A DNA stretch of 64,000 nt from Nitrospira sp. (GTDB taxonomy: Bacteria; Nitrospirota; Nitrospiria; Nitrospirales; Nitrospiraceae): assembly GCA_019636815.1 (NCBI GenBank), contig JAHBWT010000003.1, forward strand, positions 8,086 to 72,085. The letters run 5' to 3'. A program made the position numbers and the translations under genes. Below, one piece after another: positions 3,555 through 20,160 of this stretch (positions are counted from its first letter, which is position 1; the number at the start of each line of letters is the position of its first letter). Below the pieces are notes generated by a model. It worked only from the letters and a program-made list of their open reading frames with translations, had not been told where the DNA came from and made no database searches.

Positions 3555-6334
3555 CAGGTGTCCTCCCGCGAGGCGGATGCCGTGCACCGGGCCTGTCCAA
3601 GGGCGGTCAACGTCAACAGCGTCGCGCCGAGCACCACCATGAAGACGCCTAGGTCGAAGGCTATTGCGCTGGCGAGGGTGAGGTCGCCGATGAGCGGGAT
3701 GCGCCAGTGGCCGGTTGCGCTGGTGAGAAACGGTGCGCCAGCCAGCATGCTGGCAAGTCCCGTCACGCCGGCCAGCAGCACGCCGGCACCGATCAGAGCG
3801 AGAAAGTCGATCCGCACGCGGGCGAGTATCGGGCGGAGCCCGTCGCCCATATATTGCATGACGAGCGCGAGCGCGGCGACGAGCCCCGCGAGAAATCCGC
3901 CGCCCGGCAGATTGTGGCCGCGCAGGAACACGTAGACTGCCACCAGCAGCGCGAACGGGAGCAGCACCCGTGCCGCCGCCGCGAACAGGATCTGGTTCAT
4001 CGACGGTAAGGGCACGGCCGGCGGCGTGTCGGTGCGCAGTCCGGCCAGGAGCATCCATGCTCCCATGGCCGCCATCCCGAGGACGATGATCTCGCCGAAG
4101 GTATCGAATCCGCGGAAATCGACGAGCAACACGTTCACGACGTTATTCCCGCCGCCACCCGGCACGCTGTGCTCCAGAAAGTACCAGGCGATCGATTCTT
4201 CTTCGCGCGTCAGCACCGCCCATGACAAGCCCGCCACCATCACACCTGCGCCCGTCGCCAGGGCGGCATCGCGCGCTCTCCGCCCGCGCGTCGATTCCCG
4301 CCGCGTCGACTGCGGCAGGAGCGCGAGCGCCATGAGCAGCAACAGCGTCGTGACGACCTCGACGGCGAGCTGGGTCAATGAGAGGTCGGGGGCCGAGAAA
4401 TAGGCGAACGCGATCGAGGTAGCCAGTCCGACGACGCCGGCCAGGATGATGGCGACGACCCGCGTGTGATGCAACCAGACGGCACCGAGGGCCCCGGCCA
4501 TCGCCGCGCCCCACACTACTATACCTAGCGTCGGCGGTACTGCGGGCGTCAGGTTCCCCGCGCCAAACCCATGTACCACGAACGGCCATGCCCCGAGTCC
4601 GAGGAACGTTGCAATGACCAATGCCAGGGAGCGCTGGAGCGAGCCGTTGTGAAGTTGGTTCGTGAACCGGGCCGCAAGGACGATCAAGCCGTCGTACGCG
4701 TGCTGAAAGAGCAATCGTCCCGTGTAGCGCACCGGCACGTGCAGGTGCAGATCATAGTGATGCCGCAGCAGCCAATAGATCACCGCCCCGCCGGCGAGGG
4801 CAACCGCGCTCATGGCCAGCGGCAGCGTGAAGCCGTGCCAGATCGTGATGTGATAAGCGGGCAGCGAGTCCCCGACCACCTCCCGCGCCGCCGCATCCAC
4901 CAGCGGGGCGACGGTATAGTTGGGCAGGACGCCGACCGCGATGCACACGACCGCCAGGATTTCAGCCGGCACCTTCATATAGCGCGGCGGCTTGTGCGGC
5001 GGGTGCGGCAGATCATGCGGCTTGTCGAAGAACACATCGTGGATGAACCGGACTGAGTAGGCGACGCTGAACATCGCCCCCAGCGTGACGGCGGCCGGGG
5101 CGACCCCCTCCAACAACGGCAGACCATGAAGATCGAGCGCTTCGGCAAAAAACATTTCTTTGGAGAGAAACCCGTTGAAGAGCGGGACGCCGGCCATCGC
5201 CGACGCCGCCACGATGGCCAGCGTCGCCGTCTGCGGCATGTTCCGCCAGAGTCCGCCCAGCCGCCGCATGTCGCGGGTTCCGCATTCGTGATCGATGATG
5301 CCAGCCGCCATGAAGAGCGACGCTTTGAAGGTCGCATGGTTGCCGATGTGAAACACCGCGGCAACCGAGGACATCGGCGTATCGAGTCCCAACAGGAACA
5401 CAATGAGGCCGAGGTGGCTGATGGTCGAATACGCGAGCAGGCCCTTCAGGTCGTGCCTGAACATCGCCACGTACGCCCCGAACACCATCGTGACCAGGCC
5501 GACGCCGGTCGTCGTGTATTCGAACACGAGGTTGCCGCCGAGCAAGGGATAGAGCCTCGCAAGCAAAAACACGCCGGCCTTTACCATGGTGGCGGAGTGC
5601 AGATACGCCGAGGCGGGCGTGGGCGCCGCCATCGCCGCGGGCAGCCAGAAGTGAAATGGAAACTGCGCCGATTTGGTGAACGCTCCCAACAGAATCAGCG
5701 CGAGGGCGACATTGAACCGAGGATGATTCCGGATCGCCTCGCGGGCCGAGAACCAGGCGGAGAGCTCGAAGCTCCCGGCAATCTCGCCGATGAGCAGGAG
5801 CCCGGCGAGCAGGGCGAGCCCGCCGCCGCCGGTGACGGCAAAGGCCATGCGCGCACCCTGTCGGGCGAGCGGGCTGTGGGTCCAGAATCCGATCAGCAGG
5901 AAGGAGGAGAGGCTCGTCAGCTCCCAGAACATCACCAACAGCAGCATGTTCTCGGAGAGGACGATGCCCAGCATCGCGGTCATGAACAGCATCAGCAGGG
6001 CGTACAGCCGGCCGATGCGGTCCTGCGGGGACAGGTAATAGCGCGCGTACAGAACGACCAGCAGGCCGATACCGAGAATGAGCAGCGAAAAAAAGAAGCC
6101 CAGTCCGTCGAGCCGGAACGAAAGGTTCAACCCGAGCTGCGGCAGCCACGGCCAGCTCACGAGAATCCGTTCACCCGCCAGGACGGCAGGAGCCTCACCG
6201 GCCAGCAGCGCAAGGCCGCCCGCGATCGGCACGGCGGCGGCCCAAGCGGCGGCGGTGAAGCCCCGGCGCTGCGCAAGGAGCGCGCCGGTGGCGCCGGCGA
6301 GGAAGGGAAGCAGGATGATGATCGGCAGCGTCAT
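3554..6334 (-). CDS. mrpA: Mrp antiporter subunit A with fused MrpB-like C-terminal domain
   Basis: 926 aa. NuoL/ND5-like N-terminal region plus extra C-terminal TM domain. There is no separate mrpB, so this is the six-gene (group 2) Mrp layout. Confidence 0.9.
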   Translation of the reverse strand: MTLPIIILLPFLAGATGALLAQRRGFTAAAWAAAVPIAGGLALLAGEAPAVLAGERILVSWPWLPQLGLNLSFRLDGLGFFFSLLILGIGLLVVLYARYYLSPQDRIGRLYALLMLFMTAMLGIVLSENMLLLVMFWELTSLSSFLLIGFWTHSPLARQGARMAFAVTGGGGLALLAGLLLIGEIAGSFELSAWFSAREAIRNHPRFNVALALILLGAFTKSAQFPFHFWLPAAMAAPTPASAYLHSATMVKAGVFLLARLYPLLGGNLVFEYTTTGVGLVTMVFGAYVAMFRHDLKGLLAYSTISHLGLIVFLLGLDTPMSSVAAVFHIGNHATFKASLFMAAGIIDHECGTRDMRRLGGLWRNMPQTATLAIVAASAMAGVPLFNGFLSKEMFFAEALDLHGLPLLEGVAPAAVTLGAMFSVAYSVRFIHDVFFDKPHDLPHPPHKPPRYMKVPAEILAVVCIAVGVLPNYTVAPLVDAAAREVVGDSLPAYHITIWHGFTLPLAMSAVALAGGAVIYWLLRHHYDLHLHVPVRYTGRLLFQHAYDGLIVLAARFTNQLHNGSLQRSLALVIATFLGLGAWPFVVHGFGAGNLTPAVPPTLGIVVWGAAMAGALGAVWLHHTRVVAIILAGVVGLATSIAFAYFSAPDLSLTQLAVEVVTTLLLLMALALLPQSTRRESTRGRRARDAALATGAGVMVAGLSWAVLTREEESIAWYFLEHSVPGGGGNNVVNVLLVDFRGFDTFGEIIVLGMAAMGAWMLLAGLRTDTPPAVPLPSMNQILFAAAARVLLPFALLVAVYVFLRGHNLPGGGFLAGLVAALALVMQYMGDGLRPILARVRIDFLALIGAGVLLAGVTGLASMLAGAPFLTSATGHWRIPLIGDLTLASAIAFDLGVFMVVLGATLLTLTALGQARCTASASREDT

Positions 6335-6352
6335 GGCCGGAAGACGACGGTG

Positions 6353-7237
6353 CTAGAGTCGTTCACGGACGACAAGCACGTCACATTCCGAACCGGTGAG
6401 GACATGGCGCGTGACGCTCCCGAGAAGCAGTTCTTCGGCATGGGACTGACCGTGCTTGCCGATGATGATCACATCCGCCGAAAGCTCCTTCGTCTTGGCC
6501 AGGATCACGGGAGACGGATCGCCGCGCTCGACGGCAAACGATATCCGGTGCGCATCGTTCCCGGCGTTGTGGATCAGATCTATGATTCTCTTCGCGGCGT
6601 CCCGCTGTTCCGCGTCGCAGTATCGCTGAATGGCGTCGTCCGCCGCGCCAGCCATACGGAGCCTCCCTTCGAACGGAACGTGAAACGCGTGGACGATCGT
6701 AATACGGGCGTTGGGAGCGATCAGCTTCGCCATGGTCAACGCGGAAGCGGAATAAGGAGAAAAATCGACCGGCACGATCGCATGCGCATACCCGGCCTTC
6801 GGCGGGCGTTTGGCCACGAGCAGCGGCCGCTTGCACGTACGCAGCAATCGCTCCGCCGTCGTACCGAGGATCAGATCGCGCAGAGGGTTCGCTCCATGCG
6901 CCCCCAGGACGAGCAGATCCGCCGACTCAGACGTCGAAAGAATCTCGGCCAGCACCTGGCCGGTCTTGACGTCCGTGTGCCCGGCCACGCCCGTCTTCTT
7001 GCCGATGTCCGCCGCCAGGTCGTCCAGCATGCGTCTGGCGTCGTCGATCAGCTTGGCCTCGGCGTCGGCCGGCGTGCAGAACAATTTGCGGAGATCATTC
7101 AACGAAGAGCCGCTGACGACGTGCAGCAGATTCAGGCGCGCACGCTGTTCTCTCGCGACGAGGGCGGCGCGCTCGGCGGCATACCGGGCCTCGTCGGAGA
7201 AGTCGGTTGCGGCGGCAATGGACGTCATCGTCGTCAT
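6353..7237 (-). CDS. universal stress protein, tandem Usp domains
   Basis: Two UspA-like halves (LLHVV.., ADLLVLGAHG..; ADVIIIGKHGQSH..LLGSVTRHVL). Start MTTMTS at 7237 shares ATGA with the ATPase stop. Confidence 0.85.
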   Translation of the reverse strand: MTTMTSIAAATDFSDEARYAAERAALVAREQRARLNLLHVVSGSSLNDLRKLFCTPADAEAKLIDDARRMLDDLAADIGKKTGVAGHTDVKTGQVLAEILSTSESADLLVLGAHGANPLRDLILGTTAERLLRTCKRPLLVAKRPPKAGYAHAIVPVDFSPYSASALTMAKLIAPNARITIVHAFHVPFEGRLRMAGAADDAIQRYCDAEQRDAAKRIIDLIHNAGNDAHRISFAVERGDPSPVILAKTKELSADVIIIGKHGQSHAEELLLGSVTRHVLTGSECDVLVVRERL

Positions 7238-10008
7238 GGACAGGTCTCCTCTTTGCGTGCGGAAACGGAGCGACGTGCCCGGCCCCACTTGGAGGGCACG
7301 GCGGTGCTCCCGGTGAAGACGCGGATCACGGCTTTCTCCGCCTCAGCGACCACAAAGACAAAGACTCCCACCAGCGTCACCTTGAGCCACTCTCCAAGGG
7401 TCAGGTGCGTCGAGTTGAAGACGTCCTGTAATGGGCCGGTGTGCACATAGGCGATCTGCAGCAGTGTGCAGGCGGCGATGACGATCAGGACAGAGGGATT
7501 GCCGAGAAACCCCTCGCGCGAGAGCACCGATCTGACGATGTAGCGGCTGTTCAGCAGATAGAACATTTCCGCCACCACGACCGTGCTTACAGCCATGGTG
7601 CGCGCGGTTTCCAGATTGGCGCCTCGGTCGAGTTCCCAGAGAAACAGCCCCAGCGCTCCCGTCATCATCAGCCCGGAGACCATCATGATCCGCCAGACGA
7701 AAAACCACGACAGCAGAGGCTCTTGCGGGTCGCGCGGAAGCCGTTGCATGACGTCCGACTCCGGAGCCTCGAATGCCAGTGCGAGTCCGAGCGTGCTTGA
7801 TGTCGCCATGTTGATCCATAGAACCTGGGCGGCCGTCAGGGGCAACGGCAGCTCGAACAGGATCGCCGCCGTCACGACCAACACTTCGCCGCCGTTGGTC
7901 GGCAGCATGAACAGGACGAATTTCCGAATACTATCGTAGACTCCGCGCCCTTCCTGCACGGCGCTGCTGATCGTGGCGAAATTGTCGTCGGCGAGTACCA
8001 TGTCGGCCGCTTCCTTGGCGGCGTCGGTCCCCTTCAACCCCATGGCCACTCCGACGTCCGCGCGCTTGAGGGCAGGGGCGTCGTTGACACCGTCGCCGGT
8101 CATCGCCACGATGTGCCCCGCCGCTTGCAGCGCATGGACCAGCCGCAGTTTGTGCCCGGGGCTCGTGCGGGCGAAGACATCGACGTCAGACACAGTCAGG
8201 CGGAGCTGCGCGTCGTTCATTGCTTCGATTTCGGCGCCGGTCAGTGCCGGTTTGTCGTGGCCGATGCCGAGACGCGAGCCGATGGCACGCGCGGTGTCCG
8301 CATGGTCTCCGGTGATCATTTTGACCCGGATGCCGGCGGACGTGCATTCCGCCACCGCCGCCATAGCCTCCTCCCTTGGAGGATCGATAATGCCCATGAG
8401 AGCGAGGAGGATGCATCCGGTCTCAACGTCAGCAAACCGCACGTCACGTTGCGCGGACGGTACCTGCTTCATAGCGATCGCCAATGTGCGCATCCCCTGG
8501 CCGGCGCATTCCGTAGCCTGCCCGCCCCAATGGTCCCGGTTGAGCGGCAGGTCCTCGCCGTCGGCGTGGTACTTGTCGCACATATCGACCACGCGTTCAG
8601 GGGCCCCCTTTACATAAATGAACCCATGACCCTCGTGGTCATGATGGAGCGTCGCCATGAACCGGTGCTCGGATTCGAACGGAATGGCGTCGATACGGGG
8701 AAACGCCTCGCGTTCCAATGCCGGATCAAGGCCGGCTTTGACCGCGAGCGTGAGCAGGGCGCCCTCGGTCGGGTCACCTTCCAGCTGCCAGGTCCCGTTC
8801 CGTTTTCGCAGCAGTGCATCGTTGCAGAGCAGGGCGGCGCGCGCGATCCCGGCGACTTCGGGGTGGTCGCCGACCGATACCGCCGCTCCGGAAAGGTGAA
8901 GCCCGCCCTCGGGAGCGTATCCGACGCCGCTGACCTGGAAGATATGATGTCCGGCGATGACCGATTGAACCGTCATCTCGTTCTTGGTCAGGGTGCCGGT
9001 CTTGTCGGAGCAGATGACCGTGACCGCCCCCAGTGTCTCGACGGCGGGTAGGTGACGGATAATGGCGTTGCGTTTGGCCATGCGTCGTACGCCAAGGGCC
9101 AGGGTGATCGTCATAATCGCCGGAAGCCCCTCGGGAATCGCCGAGGCGGCGAGCGCGACAACCATCATGAACATCTCGTTGGGGGGGTGCCCGCGCCACA
9201 GGACACCGATAATGAAGGTGGCCAGAGCCATCACGCCAATGGCGAGCGCCAGCCAGCGGCTGAACCCCGCCATCTGGCGTATCAACGGAGTCGTCACTTG
9301 CTGGACGTGCGCCAGCATCGCGCTGATGCGTCCCAATTCGGTGCGGATGCCCGTCGCGATGACCACGCCCGTCGCCTGTCCGGACACCACCAATGTGCCG
9401 GAATAGAGCATGCAGCGGCGATCGCCCAGCAGGGCGTCAGCGGGCACGGAGGCCACCGACTTCTCCACGACCGCCGATTCCCCCGTCAAGATCGCTTCAT
9501 TCACGTGCAGACTCTTGCCCGCCGTGAGCCTCAGGTCGGCAGGTACCTTGTCGCCGGAAATCAGGGTCACGATATCTCCCTGCACCAGAGCTTCGGCTGC
9601 GATCTGGGCTCGTTCCGCATCGCGGAAGACCGTCGTACGCAGGGAGAGCATGCCGCGGATCGCGTCGAGCGCCTGCTCCGCCTTCCCTTCCTGGATAAAG
9701 CCGATGATGGCGTTGACGATGACGGCGGCGAAAAGGACCGCGGCATCGATCCAGTGGCTGAGCAAACCGGCGATCACGGTGGCGGCCAGCATCATGTAGA
9801 TCAGTACGTTGTGGAACTGTAGGAGGAAGCGCAGCCATCCCGGCCTTTTGACCGGAGGGGGGAGGCGGTTGGGGCCGTCGCGCGCCAGCCGCCGCTCGGC
9901 CTCCTCGACAGTCAGCCCGCGATGGTGATCCGTTTCCAACCGCTCGATCACGTCCTTGACATCGAGGTGATGCCATTGGACGAGATCATCCTGCTCGTTC
10001 TTCGCCAT
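7234..10008 (-). CDS. cation-transporting P-type ATPase (P2, Ca2+/Mg2+-type)
   Basis: 924 aa with LTGES, CSDKTGTLT, MITGDH and TGDGVNDAPALK motifs. Confidence 0.9.
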   Translation of the reverse strand: MAKNEQDDLVQWHHLDVKDVIERLETDHHRGLTVEEAERRLARDGPNRLPPPVKRPGWLRFLLQFHNVLIYMMLAATVIAGLLSHWIDAAVLFAAVIVNAIIGFIQEGKAEQALDAIRGMLSLRTTVFRDAERAQIAAEALVQGDIVTLISGDKVPADLRLTAGKSLHVNEAILTGESAVVEKSVASVPADALLGDRRCMLYSGTLVVSGQATGVVIATGIRTELGRISAMLAHVQQVTTPLIRQMAGFSRWLALAIGVMALATFIIGVLWRGHPPNEMFMMVVALAASAIPEGLPAIMTITLALGVRRMAKRNAIIRHLPAVETLGAVTVICSDKTGTLTKNEMTVQSVIAGHHIFQVSGVGYAPEGGLHLSGAAVSVGDHPEVAGIARAALLCNDALLRKRNGTWQLEGDPTEGALLTLAVKAGLDPALEREAFPRIDAIPFESEHRFMATLHHDHEGHGFIYVKGAPERVVDMCDKYHADGEDLPLNRDHWGGQATECAGQGMRTLAIAMKQVPSAQRDVRFADVETGCILLALMGIIDPPREEAMAAVAECTSAGIRVKMITGDHADTARAIGSRLGIGHDKPALTGAEIEAMNDAQLRLTVSDVDVFARTSPGHKLRLVHALQAAGHIVAMTGDGVNDAPALKRADVGVAMGLKGTDAAKEAADMVLADDNFATISSAVQEGRGVYDSIRKFVLFMLPTNGGEVLVVTAAILFELPLPLTAAQVLWINMATSSTLGLALAFEAPESDVMQRLPRDPQEPLLSWFFVWRIMMVSGLMMTGALGLFLWELDRGANLETARTMAVSTVVVAEMFYLLNSRYIVRSVLSREGFLGNPSVLIVIAACTLLQIAYVHTGPLQDVFNSTHLTLGEWLKVTLVGVFVFVVAEAEKAVIRVFTGSTAVPSKWGRARRSVSARKEETCP

Positions 10009-10214: not shown

Positions 10215-10511
10215 ATGATGAAACATTATACTTCAACCCTGCGGTCTAATCCTAACTATGACAGGGGGACACTCATGGCCCAGCCACGTGTTGCAGCCAA
10301 ACAACCATCTGTAATGGAACTGGAACCGGGAACCTATTACTGGTGTTCCTGCGGGCGTTCGCGGGACCAACCGTTTTGTGATGGCTCTCATCAGGGAACT
10401 GACTTTGAGCCGGTTGAATTCACTGTGGACGCGAAGAAAGAAGTGGCGTTGTGTCAGTGCAAACATACCAAGACCCCGCCGTTCTGCGACGGGACACATC
10501 AGGCACTCTGA
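10215..10511 (+). CDS. CDGSH iron-sulfur domain protein (two CDGSH motifs)
   Basis: CSCGRSRDQPFCDGSH and CQCKHTKTPPFCDGTH. In-frame ATG at 10215 preceded by AAGAGGAGGA; the track ORF starts earlier, at 10116. Confidence 0.8.
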   Translation: MMKHYTSTLRSNPNYDRGTLMAQPRVAAKQPSVMELEPGTYYWCSCGRSRDQPFCDGSHQGTDFEPVEFTVDAKKEVALCQCKHTKTPPFCDGTHQAL

Positions 10512-10548
10512 TGGCGCGATTCCCTCACAGGTTGCCCCTTCGTGTGCC

Positions 10549-12135
10549 ATGCCTCTTGAGCCGTTCCTGGCGGATGGTCCATACTGCCCGCGTATGAATA
10601 GGCCGGCCATATCCCCCTGTGAGGATCTTGCGGAGCGCTATCAAGCGCTCCTCGAAGTCGCGCAGGCGATCTCTGCGCAGCGAGACCTCGATCAACTGTT
10701 TCGTGATCTTGCCCATCGGCTTCCGCGTGTTGTACAGGTCAATTATGTCGATCTCTCCCTGCATGATCCCATCAAGAAACTGATGCGGTTGCATACCATT
10801 CAGGCCAATGTTCCGGCGGACCTTGTGGGAGGACATGAGGTCACGATTGAAGACTGTCCAGCCGGACTGGTGTGGCAAGAGCAACGACCGGTCCTTGTGC
10901 CGAAGTTGACCGAGGAGCGTCGTTGGCCAAAGGTGATCGGTTATATGAAGGAAGATGGGACGGAGTCGTTTTGTTTTGTTCCGCTCACCACGGCGAGGGG
11001 GCGGTTGGGTGCCATGGGATTCATGAGCTTGCAGAAAGAGGCTTATAGCGATAGGGATATCGAGTTTCTTCAACAAGTGGCTCAGCAGGTGGCGGTCGCG
11101 GTCGAAAACGCGCTGGCATTCCAACAAATTGCCGAGCTCAAAGATAAACTGGCGAAAGAGAAACTGTACCTCGAAGAGGAGCTCCGCATCGAGCACGGAT
11201 TTGAGGACATCATCGGTGACAGCAATGCCTTAAAGCAGGTACTCAAACAGGTGGAGGTCGTGGCCCCGACCGATTCGACCGTCTTGATTCAAGGGGAGAC
11301 GGGGACCGGCAAGGAACTCATTGCCCGCGCGATCCATCGTTTGAGTACCAGAGCAGAGCGGACGTTTGTCAAACTGAACTGCGCGGCCATTCCGACCGGA
11401 TTATTGGAGAGCGAGCTTTTCGGGCATGAACGAGGAGCATTCACCGGGGCGATTGCGCAGAAAGCCGGCCGATTTGAACTGGCTGATAAGGGCACGATCT
11501 TCCTCGATGAAGTCGGGGAGATCCCGTTAGAGTTGCAATCCAAACTGCTGCGTGTCTTGCAGGAGCAAGAATTTGAGCGATTGGGCAGCACCAAGACCAT
11601 TCGAGTCAACGTGCGGTTGATCGCCGCGACCAACCGGGATCTCAAGGGGTTGGTAGAGACCAAACAGTTTCGCAGTGACCTGTATTACCGGTTGAATGTG
11701 TTTCCGATCACCTTGCCGCCGCTACGTGAACGCCCGGAAGATATTCCTATCCTCGTCCGTTATTTTACCCAGCACTATGCCGTTCGCATGAAAAAGAATA
11801 TCCAAACGGTTCCCGCCAAGACGCTCGATATGCTCTCCCGATATGCCTGGCCAGGAAATGTTCGTGAACTCGAAAACATCGTCGAACGTTCCGTCATTCT
11901 CACGCATGGAACCGATCTCCAAGTGCCGATCAGTGAACTCCAGACGGAGAGCCGTCATGCCACCATCTCCGCAACAACGCTCGAAGAGGCCGAGCGTGAA
12001 CAGATTCTGCGCGCCTTGCGCGAAACGAAATGGGTCGTGGGGGGGGCGGCAGGCGCCGCGGCCCGGTTAGGTATTAAACGAACGACGCTTCAGTCTAAGA
12101 TGCAGAGGCTCGGCATCGCTCGTCTCCAAGCCTGA
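10549..12135 (+). CDS. sigma54-dependent transcriptional activator, GAF-AAA+-Fis HTH, no receiver domain
   Basis: GAF-like N-terminus, Walker A GETGTGKE, GAFTGA loop, C-terminal HTH (AAARLGIKRTTLQSKMQRLGI). Start uncertain: 10549 or 10594. Confidence 0.9.
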   Translation: MPLEPFLADGPYCPRMNRPAISPCEDLAERYQALLEVAQAISAQRDLDQLFRDLAHRLPRVVQVNYVDLSLHDPIKKLMRLHTIQANVPADLVGGHEVTIEDCPAGLVWQEQRPVLVPKLTEERRWPKVIGYMKEDGTESFCFVPLTTARGRLGAMGFMSLQKEAYSDRDIEFLQQVAQQVAVAVENALAFQQIAELKDKLAKEKLYLEEELRIEHGFEDIIGDSNALKQVLKQVEVVAPTDSTVLIQGETGTGKELIARAIHRLSTRAERTFVKLNCAAIPTGLLESELFGHERGAFTGAIAQKAGRFELADKGTIFLDEVGEIPLELQSKLLRVLQEQEFERLGSTKTIRVNVRLIAATNRDLKGLVETKQFRSDLYYRLNVFPITLPPLRERPEDIPILVRYFTQHYAVRMKKNIQTVPAKTLDMLSRYAWPGNVRELENIVERSVILTHGTDLQVPISELQTESRHATISATTLEEAEREQILRALRETKWVVGGAAGAAARLGIKRTTLQSKMQRLGIARLQA

Positions 12136-12236
12136 CGACTCATCGCGGTAGACCTACGCATCACGCGCGTCGCCTTTTGTCGACCCGGACGCCTCGCCGG
12201 TCGATTGAGAACGTTTCATTACCCGGTCCGCGAGGC

Positions 12237-13115
12237 TCACCGAGCAAGTGGCTCGGACGAGCCCACTTGCCCAAAGCGGCCGCTGTTGAAATCATTCGCG
12301 GCCTGCCTGATTTCTGCTTCGCTGTTCATCACGAACGGGCCATACCCCACCACTGGTTCGTCGATGGGCTCCCCCGTCAGGATGAGTACGATCGCCTCAT
12401 GATCGGTGTGGATGGTAACGTCGCTCCCGTCGCGCTCAAGCCGAACAATCTCCGCCTCGCCGGCAGTCTGGGTGCCGTTGATGACGACTTGGCCGGCGAG
12501 CACCGCAATCATGGTGTTGTGCCCCTCGGGAAGGTCCAGTGTGAGATCGATGGCTCGATCGAGGCGCAGATCCCAGAGGTTGACGGGCGTAAATGTGCGA
12601 GCCGGCCCACGAACACCGTGGAATTCTCCCGCGATGATCCGTGCCGTCCCACCCGCCAAGGGGACGACCGGAATGTCGGCGCTGGTGATCGCCTGGTAGC
12701 CAGGAGGACTCATTTTGTCTTTTGCCGGCAGATTGACCCACAGCTGGACCATCCGAAACGGGCCGCCTGTTTTGCTGTAGTTCGATGAATGGAATTCCTC
12801 ATGGATGATGCCGCGAGCTGCCGTCATCCATTGGACGTCGCCCGGTCCGATGACTCCACCATTTCCGGCGGAATCGCGGTGCGCAACTTCTCCATCATAG
12901 ACGATGGTGACCGTTTCGAATCCGCGATGCGGGTGCTGCCCCACGCCACGTGGATGATCGGTGGGATCGAACCGATGCGGCCCCGCATAATCAAACAGCA
13001 GGAACGGGCTGATGGCCGTGCTATCGTGGTGGTATGAAAACAGTGATCGAACGGGGAACCCATCCCCGACCCAATGACTCCCGTCGGCTCGCAGAATGTC
13101 GGCAATCTTCTTCAT
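12237..13115 (-). CDS. pirin family protein
   Basis: MKKIADIL..HPHRGFETVTIVYDGEVAHRDS cupin motif. ATG at 13115 preceded by GAAAGGAG. Confidence 0.9.
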   Translation of the reverse strand: MKKIADILRADGSHWVGDGFPVRSLFSYHHDSTAISPFLLFDYAGPHRFDPTDHPRGVGQHPHRGFETVTIVYDGEVAHRDSAGNGGVIGPGDVQWMTAARGIIHEEFHSSNYSKTGGPFRMVQLWVNLPAKDKMSPPGYQAITSADIPVVPLAGGTARIIAGEFHGVRGPARTFTPVNLWDLRLDRAIDLTLDLPEGHNTMIAVLAGQVVINGTQTAGEAEIVRLERDGSDVTIHTDHEAIVLILTGEPIDEPVVGYGPFVMNSEAEIRQAANDFNSGRFGQVGSSEPLAR

Positions 13116-13169
13116 GGCTGCTCCTTTCTCGATGCGATGTCTTGACCGTTCATCTCTCGTTGATAAGGT

Positions 13170-13197
13170 AGTATAGGCTCGCCTCAACAACTTTCAA
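13170..13197 (-). promoter_or_regulatory. candidate sigma70 promoter for the pirin gene
   Basis: On the minus strand, TTGAAA-N16-TATACT about 50 nt upstream of the pirin ATG. Confidence 0.35.
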
Positions 13198-13251
13198 GTA
13201 CGGTCCAGGAGGATACCGTCAGTGACCAAGCTTCCACTATCTCGCAGTTCA

Positions 13252-13269
13252 TGCCGATCTATTTCGGCA
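13252..13269. promoter_or_regulatory. palindrome TGCCGA-N6-TCGGCA (candidate enhancer/UAS)
   Basis: Perfect inverted repeat about 138 nt upstream of the -24 GG at 13399; an extra TTCGGCA half-site lies at 13281-13287. Confidence 0.35.
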
Positions 13270-13397
13270 CGTGACGATTCTTCGGCATCTGCCCATCGTC
13301 AATTGTCATCCGTCTGCAAGGGATCTTCCTGTTCACCTCATCTAGTTCGCTCACAATTCCAGAGAATTGCGCAGCATGCTCCATCACAGTAACCTGT

Positions 13398-13412
13398 TGG
13401 AATGCTCTTTGC
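13398..13412 (+). promoter_or_regulatory. candidate sigma54 -24/-12 promoter P1
   Basis: TGGAATGCTCTTTGC has GG-N10-GC spacing with TTGC at -12. It lies 47 nt upstream of the ATG at 13459. Confidence 0.55.
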
Positions 13413-13458
13413 CCTTCGACGTGGGTAGCATCACCCAAAAGGAAGCGGAGGTAACGTT

Positions 13459-13596
13459 ATGAATGAGATGATTCTACAGAGTTTATGGTACGGCATATTC
13501 GCAACCCTGCCGCTGGTTATGACAAGGATGTTGATCAGGAATGCGATGGTGAGGGCGATTGCGCATTGGCGGCCCTCTTCCACCAGTTCTAGATAG
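13459..13596 (+). CDS. unlisted 45-aa small ORF (hydrophobic N-half)
   Basis: ATG preceded by GGAGG 8 nt upstream. [45 protein letters not shown] ends 11 nt before the doxX-like start. Confidence 0.35.
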
Positions 13597-13607
13597 GGGG
13601 GTGTCCC

Positions 13608-14054
13608 ATGTCATTTTTTAAGACCGATGATTCGTGGGCCGGTCTCATCCTTCGGGTTGGGCTCGGCGTGGTGATGTTCGCGCATGGCGCTCAGAAGCTC
13701 CTAGGCTGGTTTGGTGGAAACGGCTTTGAAGGAACGCTGGGTTTCTTCACGCAGAAGATGGGGCTACCATGGCTCGTGGCCTTTCTCGTCATCATCGGAG
13801 AGTCCCTCGGTAGTGTAGGACTCATTGTCGGATTCCTGACACGATTCACGGCGGCAAGTTTTATCGTGATCATGCTCGGTGCGATCGCCACGGTGCATTG
13901 GCCGTACGGGTTCTACATGAACTGGTTCGGGCTGCAACAGGGAGAAGGATTTGAATATCATCTCCTGGTCATCGCCATGAGCGCTGCCCTTGTCGTGATC
14001 GGGGGAGGGAAATGGTCTGTGGATGGCATCATTGCCGCTTGGCTTGAGAGGTGA
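13608..14054 (+). CDS. DoxX family membrane protein
   Basis: 148 aa, four TM; [23 protein letters not shown] is a DoxX signature. Confidence 0.85.
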
Positions 14055-14225
14055 AAGAGTTTCAAAACAGCTGGGGAAAGCTGTGAAAAACGAACGTTAT
14101 GAGGCGGTCGCGCCGTGTTCTGATGAGCGAATTTTATGGTTGACTTGTAACAAGATAAGGCGGTATCAGACCGGACCAGGGAACTGTTGGACGAAACAGT
14201 TGGCTAATCTAGAAAGGAGCATAAG

Positions 14226-14762
14226 GTGAGAAGAATCAATTATTTGTTGTTATGTGCGCTAGGAATGGTTTTCTTCCTGGGGCAAGGCAACGGCTCTTTG
14301 GGGTACGCGAAAACCGTTGAGGCAGGAGATTCCAGTTCAAGTTGGAGCGGGACGGGCGAGTTCATGGAACTTGGGGCCGGAGATCAAGTCGTCAATGGAA
14401 TAGTCAAAGGAGTGCTGATCTCCCGTCATAAGGACGGAGGCAAGATGATTGTTCATTCGTCCAGATTGGCCTGCCCGGTGCGTGTCAACCTCAATAGAAG
14501 CAAGGATTATCAGGCGATGGAAGGACTCTGCACCATCGTGGCGCATGAAAGGAAAGATGTTGCGTATGGCCACTGGAAGTGCGTTGGGAACTTAAAAGAG
14601 TGCGTGGGCGATTTCACGTTTACGGGTGGTTCCGGTGGATTCACTGGCATGTCAGGAACCACTCCTTTTCAGACCAGCATCGTCTTTGAGCTCCAGGAAG
14701 GGAAAATGGGTCAAGCGATCGGGTATGCAGTCTGGCCGAACTTGACGTATATACTGCCTTAG
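14226..14762 (+). CDS. secreted hypothetical protein
   Basis: GTG start with AAGGAG 6 nt upstream; signal peptide MRRINYLLLCALGMVFFLGQGNGSLGYA; six further Cys after the signal peptide; no family recognised. Confidence 0.6.
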   Translation: MRRINYLLLCALGMVFFLGQGNGSLGYAKTVEAGDSSSSWSGTGEFMELGAGDQVVNGIVKGVLISRHKDGGKMIVHSSRLACPVRVNLNRSKDYQAMEGLCTIVAHERKDVAYGHWKCVGNLKECVGDFTFTGGSGGFTGMSGTTPFQTSIVFELQEGKMGQAIGYAVWPNLTYILP

Positions 14763-14776
14763 AGCCTCCATTTCTT

Positions 14777-14809
14777 CCGGCACGCGCCGATCATTCGGCA
14801 GCGTGCCGG
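14777..14809. promoter_or_regulatory. 33-nt hairpin/palindrome containing GCCGA-N4-TCGGC
   Basis: CCGGCACGCGCCGA TCAT TCGGCAGCGTGCCGG, with no U-tract. It could act both as the terminator of the preceding gene and as the UAS for P2, about 113 nt downstream. Confidence 0.35.
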
Positions 14810-14904
14810 ATCATCGGCAGATTCTCACCGCAGTACATTCCTTTCGGCGAAGTAACTCGTAATTATTTCGGCAGCTTCAATAGTGCCGGCTCATCAACGA
14901 TTTC

Positions 14905-14919
14905 TGGAATGTATGTTGC
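14905..14919 (+). promoter_or_regulatory. candidate sigma54 -24/-12 promoter P2
   Basis: TGGAATGTATGTTGC has GG-N10-GC spacing and is almost identical to P1. It lies 40 nt upstream of the ATG at 14960. Confidence 0.55.
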
Positions 14920-14959
14920 CAAATAAAAATGGTGAACCCTTAAGCAAGGGAGGTCGATC

Positions 14960-15196
14960 ATGGCGACGGTGGGATTACTGGAGAAAAAACCGACAGGGCG
15001 GGAGAGCCAAACCGATTCCATACGTTGTGACAGGTGCAGGGGCCTGATGATCATTGAAGAGTCTTTCGATTCTATAGCCGGGGCAGCTCATGGCGATTTT
15101 CTGGTGAGGCGTTGTGTGCAGTGCGGAGAAGTTGTCGATCCCGTTATTTTGCAGAATCGCCGATCGCAGCTCGGTAATAATCCAGCCGAGCCATAA
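14960..15196 (+). CDS. small C4 zinc-ribbon protein (paralog of 34459..34710)
   Basis: GGGAGG RBS. CDRC-x25-CVQCGEVVDPVI has the same spacing and motif as the second copy. Confidence 0.6.
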   Translation: MATVGLLEKKPTGRESQTDSIRCDRCRGLMIIEESFDSIAGAAHGDFLVRRCVQCGEVVDPVILQNRRSQLGNNPAEP

Positions 15197-15212
15197 AGTG
15201 ACAGACTACGGC

Positions 15213-15560
15213 ATGCTGAAGATCACTCAACAACGAGGCGTATCACCACACTCGCTCTTGCTCGTACTCGAGGGACGATTGGCGGGCTCTTGGGTTGAGG
15301 AGCTCGACGCGTATTGGCGAAAAATGTCCGAGGAGGATCACCAGCGCGCAGTGATCGACTTGGTCGGTGTGACGTTCGTCGATGCGGGCGGCAAGTCGGT
15401 CTTGGCACGCCTGTGGAGGCAAGGGGCGGAGCTACGGGCATCCGGCTGTTTGACGCGGTGTATCGTCGAAGAGATCACCAGGGGCGGTAGGTTCAATCCA
15501 TCGAGTAAGAGCAAGGGAGAGGACACGCTTGCTTCGAGAGCGACGCAAGAGGAAACGTGA
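15213..15560 (+). CDS. STAS domain protein (anti-sigma-antagonist-like)
   Basis: Inner start MLKITQQ. LVLEGRLAG..VIDLVGVTFVDAGGKSVLARL is a STAS pattern, but with DAGG instead of the phosphorylatable DSSG. Confidence 0.7.
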   Translation: MLKITQQRGVSPHSLLLVLEGRLAGSWVEELDAYWRKMSEEDHQRAVIDLVGVTFVDAGGKSVLARLWRQGAELRASGCLTRCIVEEITRGGRFNPSSKSKGEDTLASRATQEET

Positions 15561-15694
15561 AATGTGCGATCATCCGGGCGTTAAAGTGGCGGGGGGAGGT
15601 ACTCCGTCTTGGACTTGTCGCAGTCTCATCCGTCTCGATATAGTGACGTGTTTTGCCTTATCGAGGAAATGGCGATGAAGTTAGGAATAACCGC

Positions 15695-16936
15695 ATGAGG
15701 TTTTTGGATGTGTATTTTTTCAGACTCTTCGCTTTATTGATGACATCAGTCGTGATAGCCGCGGTGCTTGGATGCAAAGATGACGTAGGTTCTGCTCCTG
15801 CACCACCTCCGATCCCGCAGGTAGAAGTCGTGACGGCGATCGCGCGGACCGTGCCGGATGAACCGGAATTCATCGGACAGGCGGAGGCGTCTCGTCCGGT
15901 TGAAATTCGCCCTCAAGTCACCGGTATCCTGAAAGCCGTGTTGTTTTCGGAAGGGCGAGAGGTGAAAAAAGGCACCAAGCTCTACCAGATCGATCCAGTG
16001 CCGTTTGAGGCGACTTACAAAAGCGCGCAGGCTAGGATCGCGGAAGCGGAAGCGCGGTTGGTCCAAGCCAAACAGGATCTGGCCCGTGTTAAACCGTTGC
16101 TCGTAGAGCAGGCCGTCAGCCAAAAAGACGTGGACGACGCCGTCGCGGAGGATTTAGCCGCGAAGGCCGGTTTGCAAAGAGCTCAGGCCGATGTGATCAA
16201 GGCCAAGTTCGATTTCGATAACACCACAATCGTCGCTCCAATCACCGGCCTCATCGAGCGAAGCCGGTATTACGAGGGCCGGCTGGTTTCGGCTCAAACC
16301 GATTTGCTGACCATTATTCATCGTATCCATCCGATGTATGTGGTGGTCAATGTCCCGGAGACGTTTCTGCTCAAACGACGTCAGGATGCTATCGCCGTGG
16401 GGCTTCAACATCCCGGCCTCACTCAGCTGAAAGGCACGGTCATCCTGGCCGACGGCAGCACCTATCCCCATGAAGGCGTCCTCGATTTTACCGATGTCGG
16501 CCTGCGGACCGAAACGGGATCGAGGCGGGCCCGATTCGTCGTCCCCAATCCCGACGGAATGCTGCTGCCCGGGCAATTTGTGAGTGTACGCTTTAAGGGA
16601 ACAGTGAAAGACCATGCCTTGTTGGTGCCTCAGCGAGCGGTCCAGCAAGGGCCCCAGGGGCCGATCGTGTTTATCGTGGGCGAAGACGATAAGGTGGAAA
16701 TTCGGCCCGTCAAGGCGAGCAGCTGGCAAGACCAGCAATGGATCATCGAGTCGGGCGTGCGGTCCGGCGAACGGGTGATCGTCAGCGGCTTCCACACCGT
16801 GACGCCGGGAGCCCCCGTCAGACCGATTCCGGCCGCCGAGTCAAAGGACAACGGAAAACCGAACAACGGAACGTCGGTCGGCATGACCGACCCTGCTTCG
16901 GACACGAAGCCCGAAGCCTTGAAGGATTCGCAGTGA
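15695..16936 (+). CDS. RND efflux periplasmic adaptor (MFP) lipoprotein
   Basis: AAVLGC lipobox; HlyD/AcrA-like (KLYQIDPVPFEA.., TTIVAPITGLI). Confidence 0.9.
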   Translation: MRFLDVYFFRLFALLMTSVVIAAVLGCKDDVGSAPAPPPIPQVEVVTAIARTVPDEPEFIGQAEASRPVEIRPQVTGILKAVLFSEGREVKKGTKLYQIDPVPFEATYKSAQARIAEAEARLVQAKQDLARVKPLLVEQAVSQKDVDDAVAEDLAAKAGLQRAQADVIKAKFDFDNTTIVAPITGLIERSRYYEGRLVSAQTDLLTIIHRIHPMYVVVNVPETFLLKRRQDAIAVGLQHPGLTQLKGTVILADGSTYPHEGVLDFTDVGLRTETGSRRARFVVPNPDGMLLPGQFVSVRFKGTVKDHALLVPQRAVQQGPQGPIVFIVGEDDKVEIRPVKASSWQDQQWIIESGVRSGERVIVSGFHTVTPGAPVRPIPAAESKDNGKPNNGTSVGMTDPASDTKPEALKDSQ

Positions 16937-19900
16937 GCTCACGTTTTTTCATCGAACGGCCGATCTTCGCGTCGGTCATCTCCATCGTCATCATTGTCAT
17001 CGGACTCGTGGCGCTCGCCACCCTGCCCATCGCTCAATTTCCCGATATCAGCCCGCCCGTCGTACAGATCGAAGCAGACTATCCAGGCGCCAGCGCGGAA
17101 GTCGCGGCGGATTCGGTGGCGCGAACGATCGAGGTTCAGCTCCCGGGCATCGACAACCTCCTGTATTACGATTCCACGAGCACAAACGACGGCCACGTCA
17201 GCATCAGGTTGACGTTCGAGATCGGCACCAACGTGGATATCGCGCAAGTGCAGACACAAAATCGCGTGAAGCTCGCCGAGCCGCAATTGCCCCCCGAAGT
17301 GGTCCGACAGGGGATCAGCGTCTTGAAGTTTTCCCCCGATCTCCTGGTGGTCGTCGCGATGAGTTCGACCGATCCGACCCACGACTCGGTCTTTATCTCG
17401 AATTATGCGTTGTTGCGTGTCCTGGACAATCTCAAGCGGATCCGTGGAGTGGGACAGGCCGTCGTCTTCGGACAACAAAATTACTCGATGCGCTTGGTCT
17501 TGAACCCTGTGCGGATGGCTCAGCTTGGGCTGACGCCCACTGATATCGCCGCCATTGTTCGGGAACAAAACCGCGATTTCCCTGCCGGACAAGTGGGCCG
17601 CGAGCCGGCGCCGAAGGGGACGGAGCTCACGATTCCCATCATGACGCAGGGACGATTGACGGAAGTGAGTGATTTCGAAAATCTCATCGTTCGAGCCATG
17701 CCGGACGGATCGGTGATCCGCCTGAAGGACGTCGCGCGGGTTGAATTGGGAGCCCAATCGTACGTGATGCAGGGTCGATGGAACGGGAAACCGAACGTGT
17801 TTCTCATCACGTTCCTGGCTCCCGGTGCCAACGCGCTCGATACGGCCAAACACATTCGCGCTGAGATGAACGAACTCGCCAAGGCGTTTCCGCCGGGGCT
17901 GATGTACGACATTCCTTACGACACGACCAAGTTCATCGAGGTGTCGATCAAGGAAGTGCTCAAGACGCTGGCCGAGGCGATGACCCTCGTCATTCTTGTC
18001 GTGTATCTGTTCCTGCAGAGTTGGCGAGCCACCTTGATCCCCGCCACCGCGGTTCCGGTTTCACTGATCGGCACATTTGCCGGTATGGAGGCCTTGGGGT
18101 TTTCCATCAATACGCTCACTCTCTTCGGCATGGTGCTGGCTATCGGCATCGTGGTGGACGATGCCATCGTCGTCGTCGAGAACGTCGAGCGGCACATGAG
18201 GGAGGAATCCGTGTCGCCGCGGGAAGCCGCCAGAAGGGCCATGGCGGAAGTCACCCGTCCGGTAATCGCGATCGTCCTCGTATTGGTATCCGTGTTCGTG
18301 CCGGTCGCGTTTCTCGGCGGAATCATCGGCGAACTCTATAAACAATTTGCCATCACGATCGCCATGGCGGTGACCATCTCGGGGCTGGTGGCCTTGACGC
18401 TCAGCCCCGCGTTGTCGGCGCTGGTGTTGAAGCCGGGCGGTGAACATCATGAGACGGGCTTTTTCGCGTGGTTCAACAGGTTTTTTGACTGGACACGGGA
18501 GCGCTATTCCAGAGCCGTGGATGTCGTGATCAGATGGCGGGCCGTGTCTTTCTCGGTGTTTGCGGTGATCGTGGTCGCGGCCTTGGGACTCTTTCGCATG
18601 ATTCCTCCCGCCTTTTTGCCGGACGAGGACCAAGGGTATTTCATCACGATCGTGCAGCTGCCCGACGGCGCGTCCAAGCAACGGACCGATGAAGTCCTCC
18701 AGAAGATCGAACGGTATTTTCTCTCGGTCCCGGCCGTCCACTCGACCGATGCGATGTCCGGCATGAACTTCGTCTTCAATACGCGGGGTCCTAATTCCGC
18801 CACCATGTTCATTCCATTGCACCACTGGGACGAGCGCAAGTCGGGTGAGCATGTTCAGGCGTTGGTCGGGGCGGCCTACGGAGAGTTCGCAAAAATTCCC
18901 GAGGCCTTGGTTCTCGCGTTCAATGCCCCGCCGATCCGCGGGATCGGTGCGACGGGCGGATTCTCGCTGCAAGTCCAGGATCCGAGCGGGGGAGACTTCC
19001 AGGAATTGGCCGCAGCCACTCAGGAATTCGTGGCGAAAGCGAAGGAAAATCCGGCGATCGCCGGGATCGGGTCCAATTTCCGCGTCACCGCGCCCAGATT
19101 GTTCGCTCGCGTCAACCGCGAGAGGGCGAAGGCGTTGGGAGTGCCGATTTCGGAAATCTTCGATACGATGCAGGCATACTTCGGCAATTTCTATATCAAC
19201 GACTTTCTCAAATTCGGTCGAGTCTATCGCGTTCAGACGGAGGCCGAGGCTGAGTTCCGCGCGAGCCCAGACGATATCGGGAAAGTGTACGTGCGATCGC
19301 TGAGCCCAGCCGTCACGGCACTCGGCGGCTCCGGCCTCGGAGGGATGATGATTCCGCTCGATACAGTGGTCGATACTGAGTTCACGAGCGGTCCCGATCC
19401 GGTGACCCATTTCAACGGGTTCAACACAGCCTGGGTGCTGGGAGCCGCGTCGCCCGGCTACAGTTCCGGTCAGGCGTTGGAGGCGCTCGAACGTACGGCG
19501 CAAGAGGTGTTGCTTCCCAAGGGGTACACCCTCGAATGGAGCGGCATTTCGTATCAAGAAGCGAAAGTCGGGGGGCAGTCGGGGTTGGCGTTCGGGTTCG
19601 GCCTCTTGATGGTCTTTCTGGTGCTGGCGGCGCAGTTTGAAAGCTGGACCGTGCCGCTCGCCGTCATTCTCGCGGTACCGTTCGGCGCCTTCGGCGCCAT
19701 GTCCGCCGTGTGGCTGAGAGGAATGACGAACGACGTGTATTTCCAGATCGGCTTGGTCACGCTGATCGGATTGGCGGCTAAAAATGCCATCTTGATCGTC
19801 GAATTCGCCAATCATCGCCGAAGCGACGGCATGCCGCTCCAGCAGGCGGCAAAGGAAGCGGCGCGGTTGCGGTTTCGGGCGATCATCATGACCTCCATGG

Positions 19901-20160
19901 CTTTCATCGGCGGCGTGTTGCCGTTGGCGATCGCCAGCGGCGCGGGAGCGGCCAGCCGTCAATCCATCGGAACCGGTGTGTTGGGTGGAATGCTGACCGC
20001 GACATTTCTTGCGATATTTTTTGTCCCGCTGTTCTTCGTGACGGTTCGCAAGGTCGGCGAGCGATGGGCTCCCGTCCGGGAACGACCCGATTTGCCGGGG
20101 ACGCCGCCTGAACGAGTCCGCCAAGGGCACCCCGGGACTTTAGCGGACGGAGAGCATTGA
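16933..20160 (+). CDS. RND efflux permease (AcrB/HAE1 type)
   Basis: GTGA overlap with the MFP stop. SSRFFIERPIFASVISIVIIVIG is the canonical AcrB N-terminus; about 1075 aa. Confidence 0.95.
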   Translation: MSSRFFIERPIFASVISIVIIVIGLVALATLPIAQFPDISPPVVQIEADYPGASAEVAADSVARTIEVQLPGIDNLLYYDSTSTNDGHVSIRLTFEIGTNVDIAQVQTQNRVKLAEPQLPPEVVRQGISVLKFSPDLLVVVAMSSTDPTHDSVFISNYALLRVLDNLKRIRGVGQAVVFGQQNYSMRLVLNPVRMAQLGLTPTDIAAIVREQNRDFPAGQVGREPAPKGTELTIPIMTQGRLTEVSDFENLIVRAMPDGSVIRLKDVARVELGAQSYVMQGRWNGKPNVFLITFLAPGANALDTAKHIRAEMNELAKAFPPGLMYDIPYDTTKFIEVSIKEVLKTLAEAMTLVILVVYLFLQSWRATLIPATAVPVSLIGTFAGMEALGFSINTLTLFGMVLAIGIVVDDAIVVVENVERHMREESVSPREAARRAMAEVTRPVIAIVLVLVSVFVPVAFLGGIIGELYKQFAITIAMAVTISGLVALTLSPALSALVLKPGGEHHETGFFAWFNRFFDWTRERYSRAVDVVIRWRAVSFSVFAVIVVAALGLFRMIPPAFLPDEDQGYFITIVQLPDGASKQRTDEVLQKIERYFLSVPAVHSTDAMSGMNFVFNTRGPNSATMFIPLHHWDERKSGEHVQALVGAAYGEFAKIPEALVLAFNAPPIRGIGATGGFSLQVQDPSGGDFQELAAATQEFVAKAKENPAIAGIGSNFRVTAPRLFARVNRERAKALGVPISEIFDTMQAYFGNFYINDFLKFGRVYRVQTEAEAEFRASPDDIGKVYVRSLSPAVTALGGSGLGGMMIPLDTVVDTEFTSGPDPVTHFNGFNTAWVLGAASPGYSSGQALEALERTAQEVLLPKGYTLEWSGISYQEAKVGGQSGLAFGFGLLMVFLVLAAQFESWTVPLAVILAVPFGAFGAMSAVWLRGMTNDVYFQIGLVTLIGLAAKNAILIVEFANHRRSDGMPLQQAAKEAARLRFRAIIMTSMAFIGGVLPLAIASGAGAASRQSIGTGVLGGMLTATFLAIFFVPLFFVTVRKVGERWAPVRERPDLPGTPPERVRQGHPGTLADGEH

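Follow-up and report, generated by a model that had tools for sequence, protein, structure and literature searches.

An FhlA-related regulator predicted to act on two conserved sigma-54 promoters through paired upstream sites in Nitrospira

Nitrospira oxidises nitrite in soils, waters and treatment plants, and only a small part of how it regulates its genes is understood. Here we analysed a stretch of 64 kb from Nitrospira sp. (contig JAHBWT010000003.1; hereafter the window), with the focus on the gene of an FhlA-like enhancer-binding protein (EBP; 10549-12135, + strand) and on two sigma-54-type promoter boxes downstream, P1 and P2. Most likely, this FhlA-related regulator switches on both promoters through conserved paired sites: P1, which precedes a small open reading frame (ORF; 13459-13596, +) and a DoxX membrane protein gene (13608-14054, +), and P2, which precedes the genes of a zinc-ribbon protein (14960-15196, +) and a STAS-domain protein (15213-15560, +). 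We consider it probable, from the comparison of related loci, that what the region holds is one instance of a sigma-54 module conserved in Nitrospira, the core of which is also found in Acidobacteriota, Planctomycetota and Binatia. Such a module is of a kind already known, since it unites EBP, enhancer and sigma-54 promoter in the classical manner of the FhlA lineage; what is new are its targets and its specificity. It offers a concrete and testable regulon, with one regulator, a defined motif, two promoters and a short target list, which is likely to be tied both to an efflux pump and to the tolerance of redox-active or toxic compounds.

The two -24/-12 boxes were proposed in a first-pass annotation, made by a model from the DNA letters, and they are found where it had placed them. 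The P1 box reads TTGGAATGCTCTTTGCC (13397-13413, with the core TGGAATGCTCTTTGCC at 13398-13413) and the P2 box CTGGAATGTATGTTGCC (14904-14920, with the core TGGAATGTATGTTGCC at 14905-14920), both on the + strand and both with GG-N10-GC spacing. The distance from the end of the box to the start codon is 40 nucleotides (nt) at P2 (start 14960), as annotated, and 46 nt at P1 (start 13459) instead of the 47 nt given before. With up to one mismatch allowed, TGGAATG-N4-TTGCC occurs in the 64 kb only at these two boxes, against 0.35 occurrences expected. Scoring with a sigma-54 matrix, which the annotation had suggested as a check, placed both boxes in the top five of the window when both strands were scanned; this matrix was a rough approximation, used as a scanner only, with the count on the opposite strand as its control. 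The P1 box has an orthologue, TGGAATGCCTCTTGCC, before the small ORF and DoxX in locus L096 of the comparison set described below, and orthologues of the P2 box precede the zinc-ribbon gene in more than 30 loci. Both elements thus show the spacing, the flanking TGG and TTGC and the conservation before orthologous genes that mark sigma-54 promoters. The family consensus, TGGAAYG-N4-TTGCY, has A at the fourth position instead of the textbook C, although the scanner favoured C.

Upstream of each box stand inverted repeats. The palindromes reported initially, TGCCGA-N6-TCGGCA at 13252-13269 before P1 and GCCGA-N4-TCGGC at 14786-14799 before P2, are present as described, and each belongs to a larger array. 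The P1 enhancer (13252-13301, +) consists of five half-sites (TGCCGA at 13252-13257, TCGGCA at 13264-13269, TGACGA at 13272-13277, TCGGCA at 13282-13287 and TCGTCA at 13296-13301) in an N6 plus N4 geometry, with the dyad at 13272 lying 126 nt before the TGG of the box. The P2 enhancer (14777-14819, +) comprises a half-site CCGGCA (14777-14782) and the dyads CGCCGA-N4-TCGGCA (14785-14800) and TGCCGG-N4-TCGGCA (14804-14819), 120 and 101 nt before the box TGG. By the variable base of the half-site TG-x-CGA, P2 is C-type and P1 is a hybrid, with three of its five half-sites C-type and two, at 13272 and 13296, A-type; the two enhancers are not the same, although the annotation had described palindromes with the same half-sites. 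The additional TTCGGCA copies that had been listed need amendment as well: the one at 14812 is in fact ATCGGCA (14813-14819), and the one at 14868 starts at 14867. TTCGGCA is common in the window (30 copies, 12.7 expected), and therefore a lone half-site means little; a window-wide scan for the bare dyad GNCG-N6-CGNC returned 13 matches, mostly inside genes, and is too weak alone. The predicted elements take their significance from the combined architecture conserved over related loci and not from counts within the window.

The comparison set comprised 160 loci (1.40 Mb), 80 from a search with the EBP, limited to one genome per species, and 80 from a metagenome search with the CDGSH protein that is encoded next to it. 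The closest relatives of the EBP, with 74-89% identity, come from metagenome-assembled Nitrospira genomes. Most Nitrospira loci have a TGGAAC-N5-TTGC[C/T] box 150-250 nt past the EBP stop codon, just before the zinc-ribbon gene or, in some lineages, before DoxX, and the aligned upstream DNA contains two tandem TGCCGA-N4-TCGGCA dyads, with starts about 144 and 125 nt ahead of the TGG, followed about ten bases on by an extra TCGGCA half-site. Joint scoring of box and dyad over the 1.40 Mb gave 67 matches on the strand of the EBP gene and 2 on its complement, with dyad-to-box distances peaking sharply at 144 and 123-126 nt, and these strand counts bear out the expected conservation of the boxes in relatives that carry the same genes. 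Exactly two such units occur in the window, P1 and P2. The same enhancer architecture adjoins related EBPs in Acidobacteriota, Planctomycetota and Binatia. No sigma-54 box or dyads were found before the cluster that runs from pirin to CDGSH in any locus, and there is thus no sign of autoregulation. These data support the boxes as conserved promoter elements and the palindromes as conserved enhancer dyads that keep a fixed distance and track a specificity residue of the EBP. The annotation had proposed to check whether they co-vary with the CDGSH-EBP pair; they track a helix residue of the EBP, and outside Nitrospira they occur beside EBP genes that have no CDGSH gene with them.

The specificity residue lies in the recognition helix of the helix-turn-helix (HTH) domain, which in the window EBP is KRTTLQSKM. 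Across the family the helix follows the pattern KRTTL-X-SKM and the half-site the pattern TG-x-CGA, and X and x change together. EBPs with X = Q go with TGCCGA: 51 of the 58 Q-type EBPs with detectable downstream dyads have C-type sites, the rest being 5 mixed, 1 G-type and 1 A-type (L096). X = T or S goes with TGACGA (L012, L027, L050), and X = L or I with TGTCGA (L019, L072, L063, L044). Because the middle base of the half-site co-varies with the helix residue, the dyads can be assigned to the EBP family, and they are almost certainly, on this comparative evidence, enhancers of the EBP's own regulator family. The HTH domain with cognate upstream sites near a -24/-12 promoter is what is expected of an EBP. 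One helix residue (Q, T/S or L/I) would then set one base of the half-site, and the P1 enhancer would stand midway in a rewiring between paralogues. A rule of one amino acid and one base, common to Escherichia coli FhlA, would allow targets to be predicted for uncharacterised regulators of this family in several phyla.

The likeness to FhlA extends over most of the protein. Pfam profiles place a GAF domain at residues 45-187, the AAA+ domain at 221-387 (Sigma54_activat, 1.2e-74) and a Fis-type HTH (HTH_8) at 477-520; a receiver domain is lacking, as in FhlA, and the GAFTGA motif is intact and conserved across 99 homologues. FhlA is the best NCBIfam match, covering GAF, AAA+ and HTH (model positions 186-688), with 552 bits against a cut-off of 830 for the equivalog NF011958, and the window EBP lacks a counterpart to residues 1-185 of FhlA. 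FhlA of E. coli K-12 ends in KRTTLLSRM, and TTTCGACA and TTTCGTCA half-sites (TTTCG[A/T]CA) occur in the hycA-hypA intergenic, hycB-upstream and fdhF-upstream regions of E. coli, the hyc/hyp and fdhF stretches being ones that we take to be the mapped FhlA enhancers. Both regulators therefore combine a KRTTL-X-S(K/R)M helix with half-sites of the TTTCG-N-CA family, present in several inverted and direct copies before a sigma-54 promoter. They differ in the specificity residue, L in E. coli FhlA and Q in the window EBP with its half-site TCGGCA, and in their surroundings, hydrogenase and formate dehydrogenase genes (hyc, hyp, fdhF) as FhlA targets against zinc-ribbon, STAS, DoxX and efflux genes as neighbours of the EBP. 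By these sequence likenesses, the window EBP is predicted to use FhlA-type DNA recognition with a changed specificity base.

Other regulators of this class are more distant. NorR and NifA share the order GAF, AAA+ and HTH without a receiver, and they too switch on nearby operons for stress responses or metabolism, acting from several upstream sites on sigma-54 promoters. The EBP scores 375 against the cut-off of 476 of the NorR equivalog NF003451, in a match limited to residues 144-485 that leaves the GAF domain uncovered, and 434.9 against the cut-off of 528.85 of the NifA equivalog TIGR01817. NifA binds TGT-N10-ACA and NorR GT-N7-AC, motifs that differ from the dyads described here.

Several observations weigh against this assignment or limit it. 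The co-variation stems from few independent events, perhaps two to four. In L096 a Q-type EBP, 88% identical to that of the window, stands next to a purely TGACGA-type enhancer (6040-6200 of that locus), and the E. coli FhlA regions carry both A-type and T-type half-sites; because of these two cases the code from helix residue to base is a preference and not a rule. The predicted dyads were not found beside the T-type EBP genes of L014 and L015 nor beside the I-type gene of L047. Within the window, the P2 dyads are 24 nt nearer to the box than the usual 144 nt, and the P1 enhancer is mixed, with an N6-spaced first dyad. Binding of the EBP and firing of the promoters are predictions, and the signal and physiological role proposed below derive only from neighbouring gene content. 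The sigma factor gene rpoN is absent among the ORFs scanned, all of them from the 64-kb window. The rpoN gene of a Nitrospira has been cloned (PMC8553950), and sigma-54-dependent regulators are reported to adjoin nxr operons (PMC6606698, PMC7522533).

P1 and P2 have separate histories. For P2, together with its 5' leader, the orthologue is the promoter of the zinc-ribbon gene in L001, L083, L100 and L128, and the P2 enhancer is purely C-type. For P1, it is the promoter that precedes the small ORF and DoxX in L096, L012, L027 and L050; the enhancers there read TGACGA-N6-TCGTCA, N2, TGACGA-N4-TCGTCN, N8, TCGTCA, a spacing identical to that of P1 in the window. A recent duplication as the origin of the two promoters was considered and rejected, the flanks being different and each promoter orthologous to a distinct type in relatives. 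The regulator of P1 may accordingly be the local EBP or a T/S-type paralogue encoded at another place in the genome, or P1 may respond to the two of them. The unity of the regulon finds support in close relatives, where the zinc-ribbon gene and DoxX are under one C-type promoter (L083, L100, L128; in L083 also STAS), and in L096, where small ORF, DoxX, zinc-ribbon gene and STAS are all under one promoter. The regulon of DoxX and the zinc-ribbon/STAS pair that had been proposed is sustained to this extent, with P1 as the part whose hybrid enhancer may also serve a paralogous regulator.

How far the local EBP accounts for these sites has to be weighed against three alternatives. P1 could be controlled mainly by a T/S-helix paralogous EBP encoded elsewhere in the genome, with the local Q-type EBP confined to P2. 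We regard this as unlikely, yet it is the strongest of the three: the spacing of P1 is exactly that of the TGACGA-type enhancers, two of its half-sites are A-type, and in L012, L027 and L050 a T/S-type EBP is encoded directly upstream of the small ORF and DoxX. Set against it are the C-type majority of the half-sites, which includes both arms of the first dyad, the purely C-type promoter of DoxX in L083, L100 and L128, and the absence of a second EBP gene from the 64-kb window. That the palindromes are mainly RNA hairpins, acting as terminators, transcript stabilisers or a repeated extragenic element, is far less plausible and in our judgement very improbable. The stretch with the P2 dyads, 14776-14810, does form a strong hairpin with the palindrome 14786-14799 as its tip (RNA fold -35.2 kcal/mol, z -6.3), and it begins 14 nt beyond the end of the secreted-protein ORF, so that a second role at the transcript end is possible. 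It is not an intrinsic terminator, however, since a T-run is missing and the terminator scan was silent there. Moreover, the dyads keep their distance from the box in dozens of loci, whatever the upstream gene, their middle base varies with an HTH residue, and at P1 the flanking genes diverge, so that no transcript ends at that copy. The least credible alternative is chance in a GC-rich genome. Counts within the window would allow it, with 12 loose TGG-N8-TTGC matches against 9.2 expected and 3 copies of TGCCG-N(2-12)-CGGCA against 1.9, but against it stand the strand bias of 67 to 2, the fixed geometry and the co-variation with the recognition helix, and chance already looks excluded by these comparative data.

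A fourth alternative concerns the signal and not the sites. The gene before that of the EBP encodes a 98-residue CDGSH protein (10215-10511, +; Pfam zf-CDGSH, E 1.9e-21, two stretches) with the motifs CSCGRSRDQPFCDGSH and CQCKHTKTPPFCDGTH in one chain, as in other two-domain members of the family; CISD3/MiNT and 3TBN likewise have two CDGSH motifs in one short chain, and the best matches among solved structures are indeed 3tbn (1.6e-23) and then CISD3 6avj (2.4e-19). It is predicted to bind redox-active [2Fe-2S] clusters. Pfam confirms the initial description of this pair, a two-motif CDGSH protein immediately upstream of, and co-oriented with, a receiver-less GAF-AAA+-HTH protein, with a gap of 37 nt. 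It had been suggested that the CDGSH protein gates the EBP. As a dedicated redox co-sensor it would act by contact or by cluster transfer, as one half of a two-protein signalling unit. In a related form of the idea, this separate protein would relay a redox or iron-sulfur signal to an EBP in which the additional N-terminal GAF domain or domains of its longer relatives have been lost. We hold both forms to be improbable. In their favour, the same adjacency is seen in L002-L004 and, among the 72 metagenome loci whose sequence extends far enough past CDGSH, in 26, with an EBP 150-400 nt past CDGSH in another 4 and a member of the EBP family within a 4 kb flank in at least 42. A precedent also exists in OrpR of Desulfovibrio vulgaris, an EBP that senses redox through an iron-sulfur cluster (PMC8359166); there the cluster is located within the EBP itself, unlike the arrangement here.

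The wider gene order argues against such gating. CDGSH is most often linked to an upstream glyoxalase gene (37 of 69 loci), and in at least 20 loci the next gene after CDGSH is that of an NAD(P)H-binding protein, followed by an EBP in 9 of the 72 loci and by the contig end before any EBP in 11. In four others (L110, L121, L123, L138) CDGSH stands directly before the genes of the membrane-fusion protein and the RND pump, and EBP, zinc-ribbon and STAS genes are missing in between. Conversely, L001 has an EBP 87% identical to that of the window and no CDGSH within 4.4 kb upstream, the EBPs with the same enhancer outside Nitrospira are not accompanied by CDGSH, and the partner conserved across phyla is STAS. 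The GAF domain has one widely conserved cysteine only, C142, which gives too few ligands for a cluster held in one chain. By Pfam, related loci carry a same-strand cluster of pirin, DsbA-like, Rieske-FMN reductase, glyoxalase and CDGSH genes, and the CDGSH gene is, as judged from this order, the last enzyme gene of a conserved redox/detoxification operon, a setting unlike that of CISD3/MiNT. The CDGSH-EBP order within Nitrospira is what shared operon history leads one to expect, and CDGSH is not singled out as a partner of the EBP. A literature search found, within the library that it covered, no paper joining CDGSH with sigma-54, in line with the annotation's remark that such a signalling pair had not been described; the link is that of a conserved gene neighbourhood and does not establish a new kind of signalling.

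We therefore return to the FhlA-related EBP acting through its own dyads, for which we infer the following course. The EBP would bind the tandem inverted repeats (TGCCGA-N4-TCGGCA twice plus the extra half-site) about 100-145 nt before a TGGAAY-N5-TTGCY promoter; a signal at the GAF domain would lead it to spend ATP and to open the sigma-54 closed complex. P2 would drive the zinc-ribbon and STAS genes, probably reading on towards the RND pump, and P1 the small membrane ORF and DoxX, perhaps also the secreted protein encoded after them. A paralogous EBP with a preference for TGACGA may also use the mixed P1 enhancer, or the local EBP may have taken it over from such a paralogue recently. CDGSH, the last of the enzyme genes in the redox cluster, would share a transcript with the EBP. 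Neighbouring gene content suggests a response to redox-active or electrophilic toxic compounds, because the neighbours are pirin, nitroreductase and a dehydrogenase-like ORF here, and DsbA-like, glyoxalase, Rieske-FMN reductase and NAD(P)H-binding proteins at related loci. Literature searches yielded no description of this regulon, mere noise for the motif sequences, nothing relevant on GAF-domain EBPs with RND efflux, and nothing on Nitrospira with DoxX, pirin or CDGSH and transcriptomes.

Gene identities were taken from Pfam profile scans of the window ORFs, with NCBIfam for curated equivalogs. The small ORF encodes 45 residues with a single hydrophobic helix and is conserved in relatives: homologues of 43-46 residues precede DoxX in L012, L050 and L027, and L096 gives a 56% tblastn match. 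On this conservation we regard it as a real gene, and its product is likely to be a small membrane partner of DoxX (Pfam DoxX, 5.7e-23). The secreted protein of 178 residues (14226-14762, +) has no Pfam or NCBIfam match; it had been called an orphan, and this does not hold, with homologues in at least 10 loci, including L001, L036, L041, L043, L096, L100 and L103. The first gene after P2 encodes the 78-residue zinc-ribbon protein, with two invariant CxxC pairs (C23, C26, C52 and C55 in an alignment of 16 sequences); searches of Pfam, NCBIfam and solved structures found no relatives, and structure prediction from the single sequence gave a model that is unusable (mean predicted local distance difference test score, pLDDT, 56). 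An inverted repeat CCCTT-N4-AAGGG (14937-14950, +) lies in the 5' leader of this gene, overlaps the ribosome-binding site and is conserved, recurring in L001, L083, L100 and L128; translation of the zinc-ribbon gene may be under its control. Inspection by eye for an integration host factor site between enhancer and promoter gave imperfect matches only.

The STAS protein is matched weakly as a single sequence, and the family profile confirms the assignment: 17 of the 26 family members match Pfam STAS_2, and the profile finds the SpoIIAA-type antagonists 1tid, 1th8 and 1sbo at 5e-4 to 1e-3. The phosphorylatable serine of the SpoIIAA-type DSSG loop is replaced, the family having alanine at the usual phospho-serine position (fIDAeGk against FMDSSG) and the window protein reading VDAGG. 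In four Acidobacteriota loci (L040, L066, L074, L078) STAS forms an in-frame fusion with a TolC-like outer-membrane efflux protein, the two parts being separated by a hydrophobic, signal-like segment; the topology is odd and links STAS to the pump. HycA (for FhlA) and PspA (for PspF) are modulators encoded within the regulon of their own activator, and the zinc-ribbon gene is likewise the first of a predicted EBP-activated operon. Purely by this analogy, the zinc-ribbon and STAS proteins might exert feedback; neither has sequence similarity to HycA, and the Acidobacteriota fusions point to the pump rather than to the EBP.

The pump genes follow on the + strand in a conserved order, membrane-fusion protein at 15695-16936, RND pump at about 16933-20160 and outer-membrane factor at 20157-21590 (Pfam). 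Control of the pump by the EBP had been thought possible. P2 would read on towards it, and a promoter scan found a sigma-70-type promoter, TTGTCG-18-TATAGT (15615-15644, +), between STAS and the membrane-fusion gene, and this promoter, CTTGCCGCCGTCTC...GGTACAAT, is conserved in the corresponding gap of about 15 loci; the pump is therefore not solely sigma-54-dependent. In several loci a TetR-family gene lies just upstream of this conserved promoter. Elsewhere (L026, L034, L036, L041 and others) the zinc-ribbon gene and STAS are separated by genes for an S-adenosylmethionine methyltransferase (a weak thiopurine-methyltransferase match), a TerB-domain protein, a TetR regulator and a DedA-rhodanese fusion, which is suggestive of chalcogen or thiol stress. 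Next to the last pump gene is a nitroreductase gene (21596-22225, +; Pfam Nitroreductase, 7.5e-25), followed by a short-chain dehydrogenase-like ORF (22222-22953; cluster c10, whose representative is enoyl-reductase- or short-chain dehydrogenase/reductase-like by eye only). The pirin gene (12237-13115, - strand; Pfam Pirin and Pirin_C) is a neighbour that is not driven by P1, and the promoter scan gave it a sigma-70-like promoter of its own, TTGAAA-16-TATACT (13197-13170, minus strand).

Two further sigma-54-like sites scored highly in the window, neither with dyads nearby. The best score of all (14.2) belongs to AGGCATGAAACTTGCT at 31808-31823 (+), in AT-rich intergenic DNA just before a family-less ORF (31819-32307), and L009 has a similar box, AGGCATGCATCTTGCT, at 9598. 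The other, TGGAATACGTCTTGCT at 33247-33262 (-; score 13.6), is antisense within a sodium:solute symporter gene and is probably due to chance. Upstream of the CDGSH gene, the opposite strand (1657-10008) carries a large ORF that is P-type ATPase-like by eye, a tandem universal-stress-protein gene and Mrp-type antiporter subunits.

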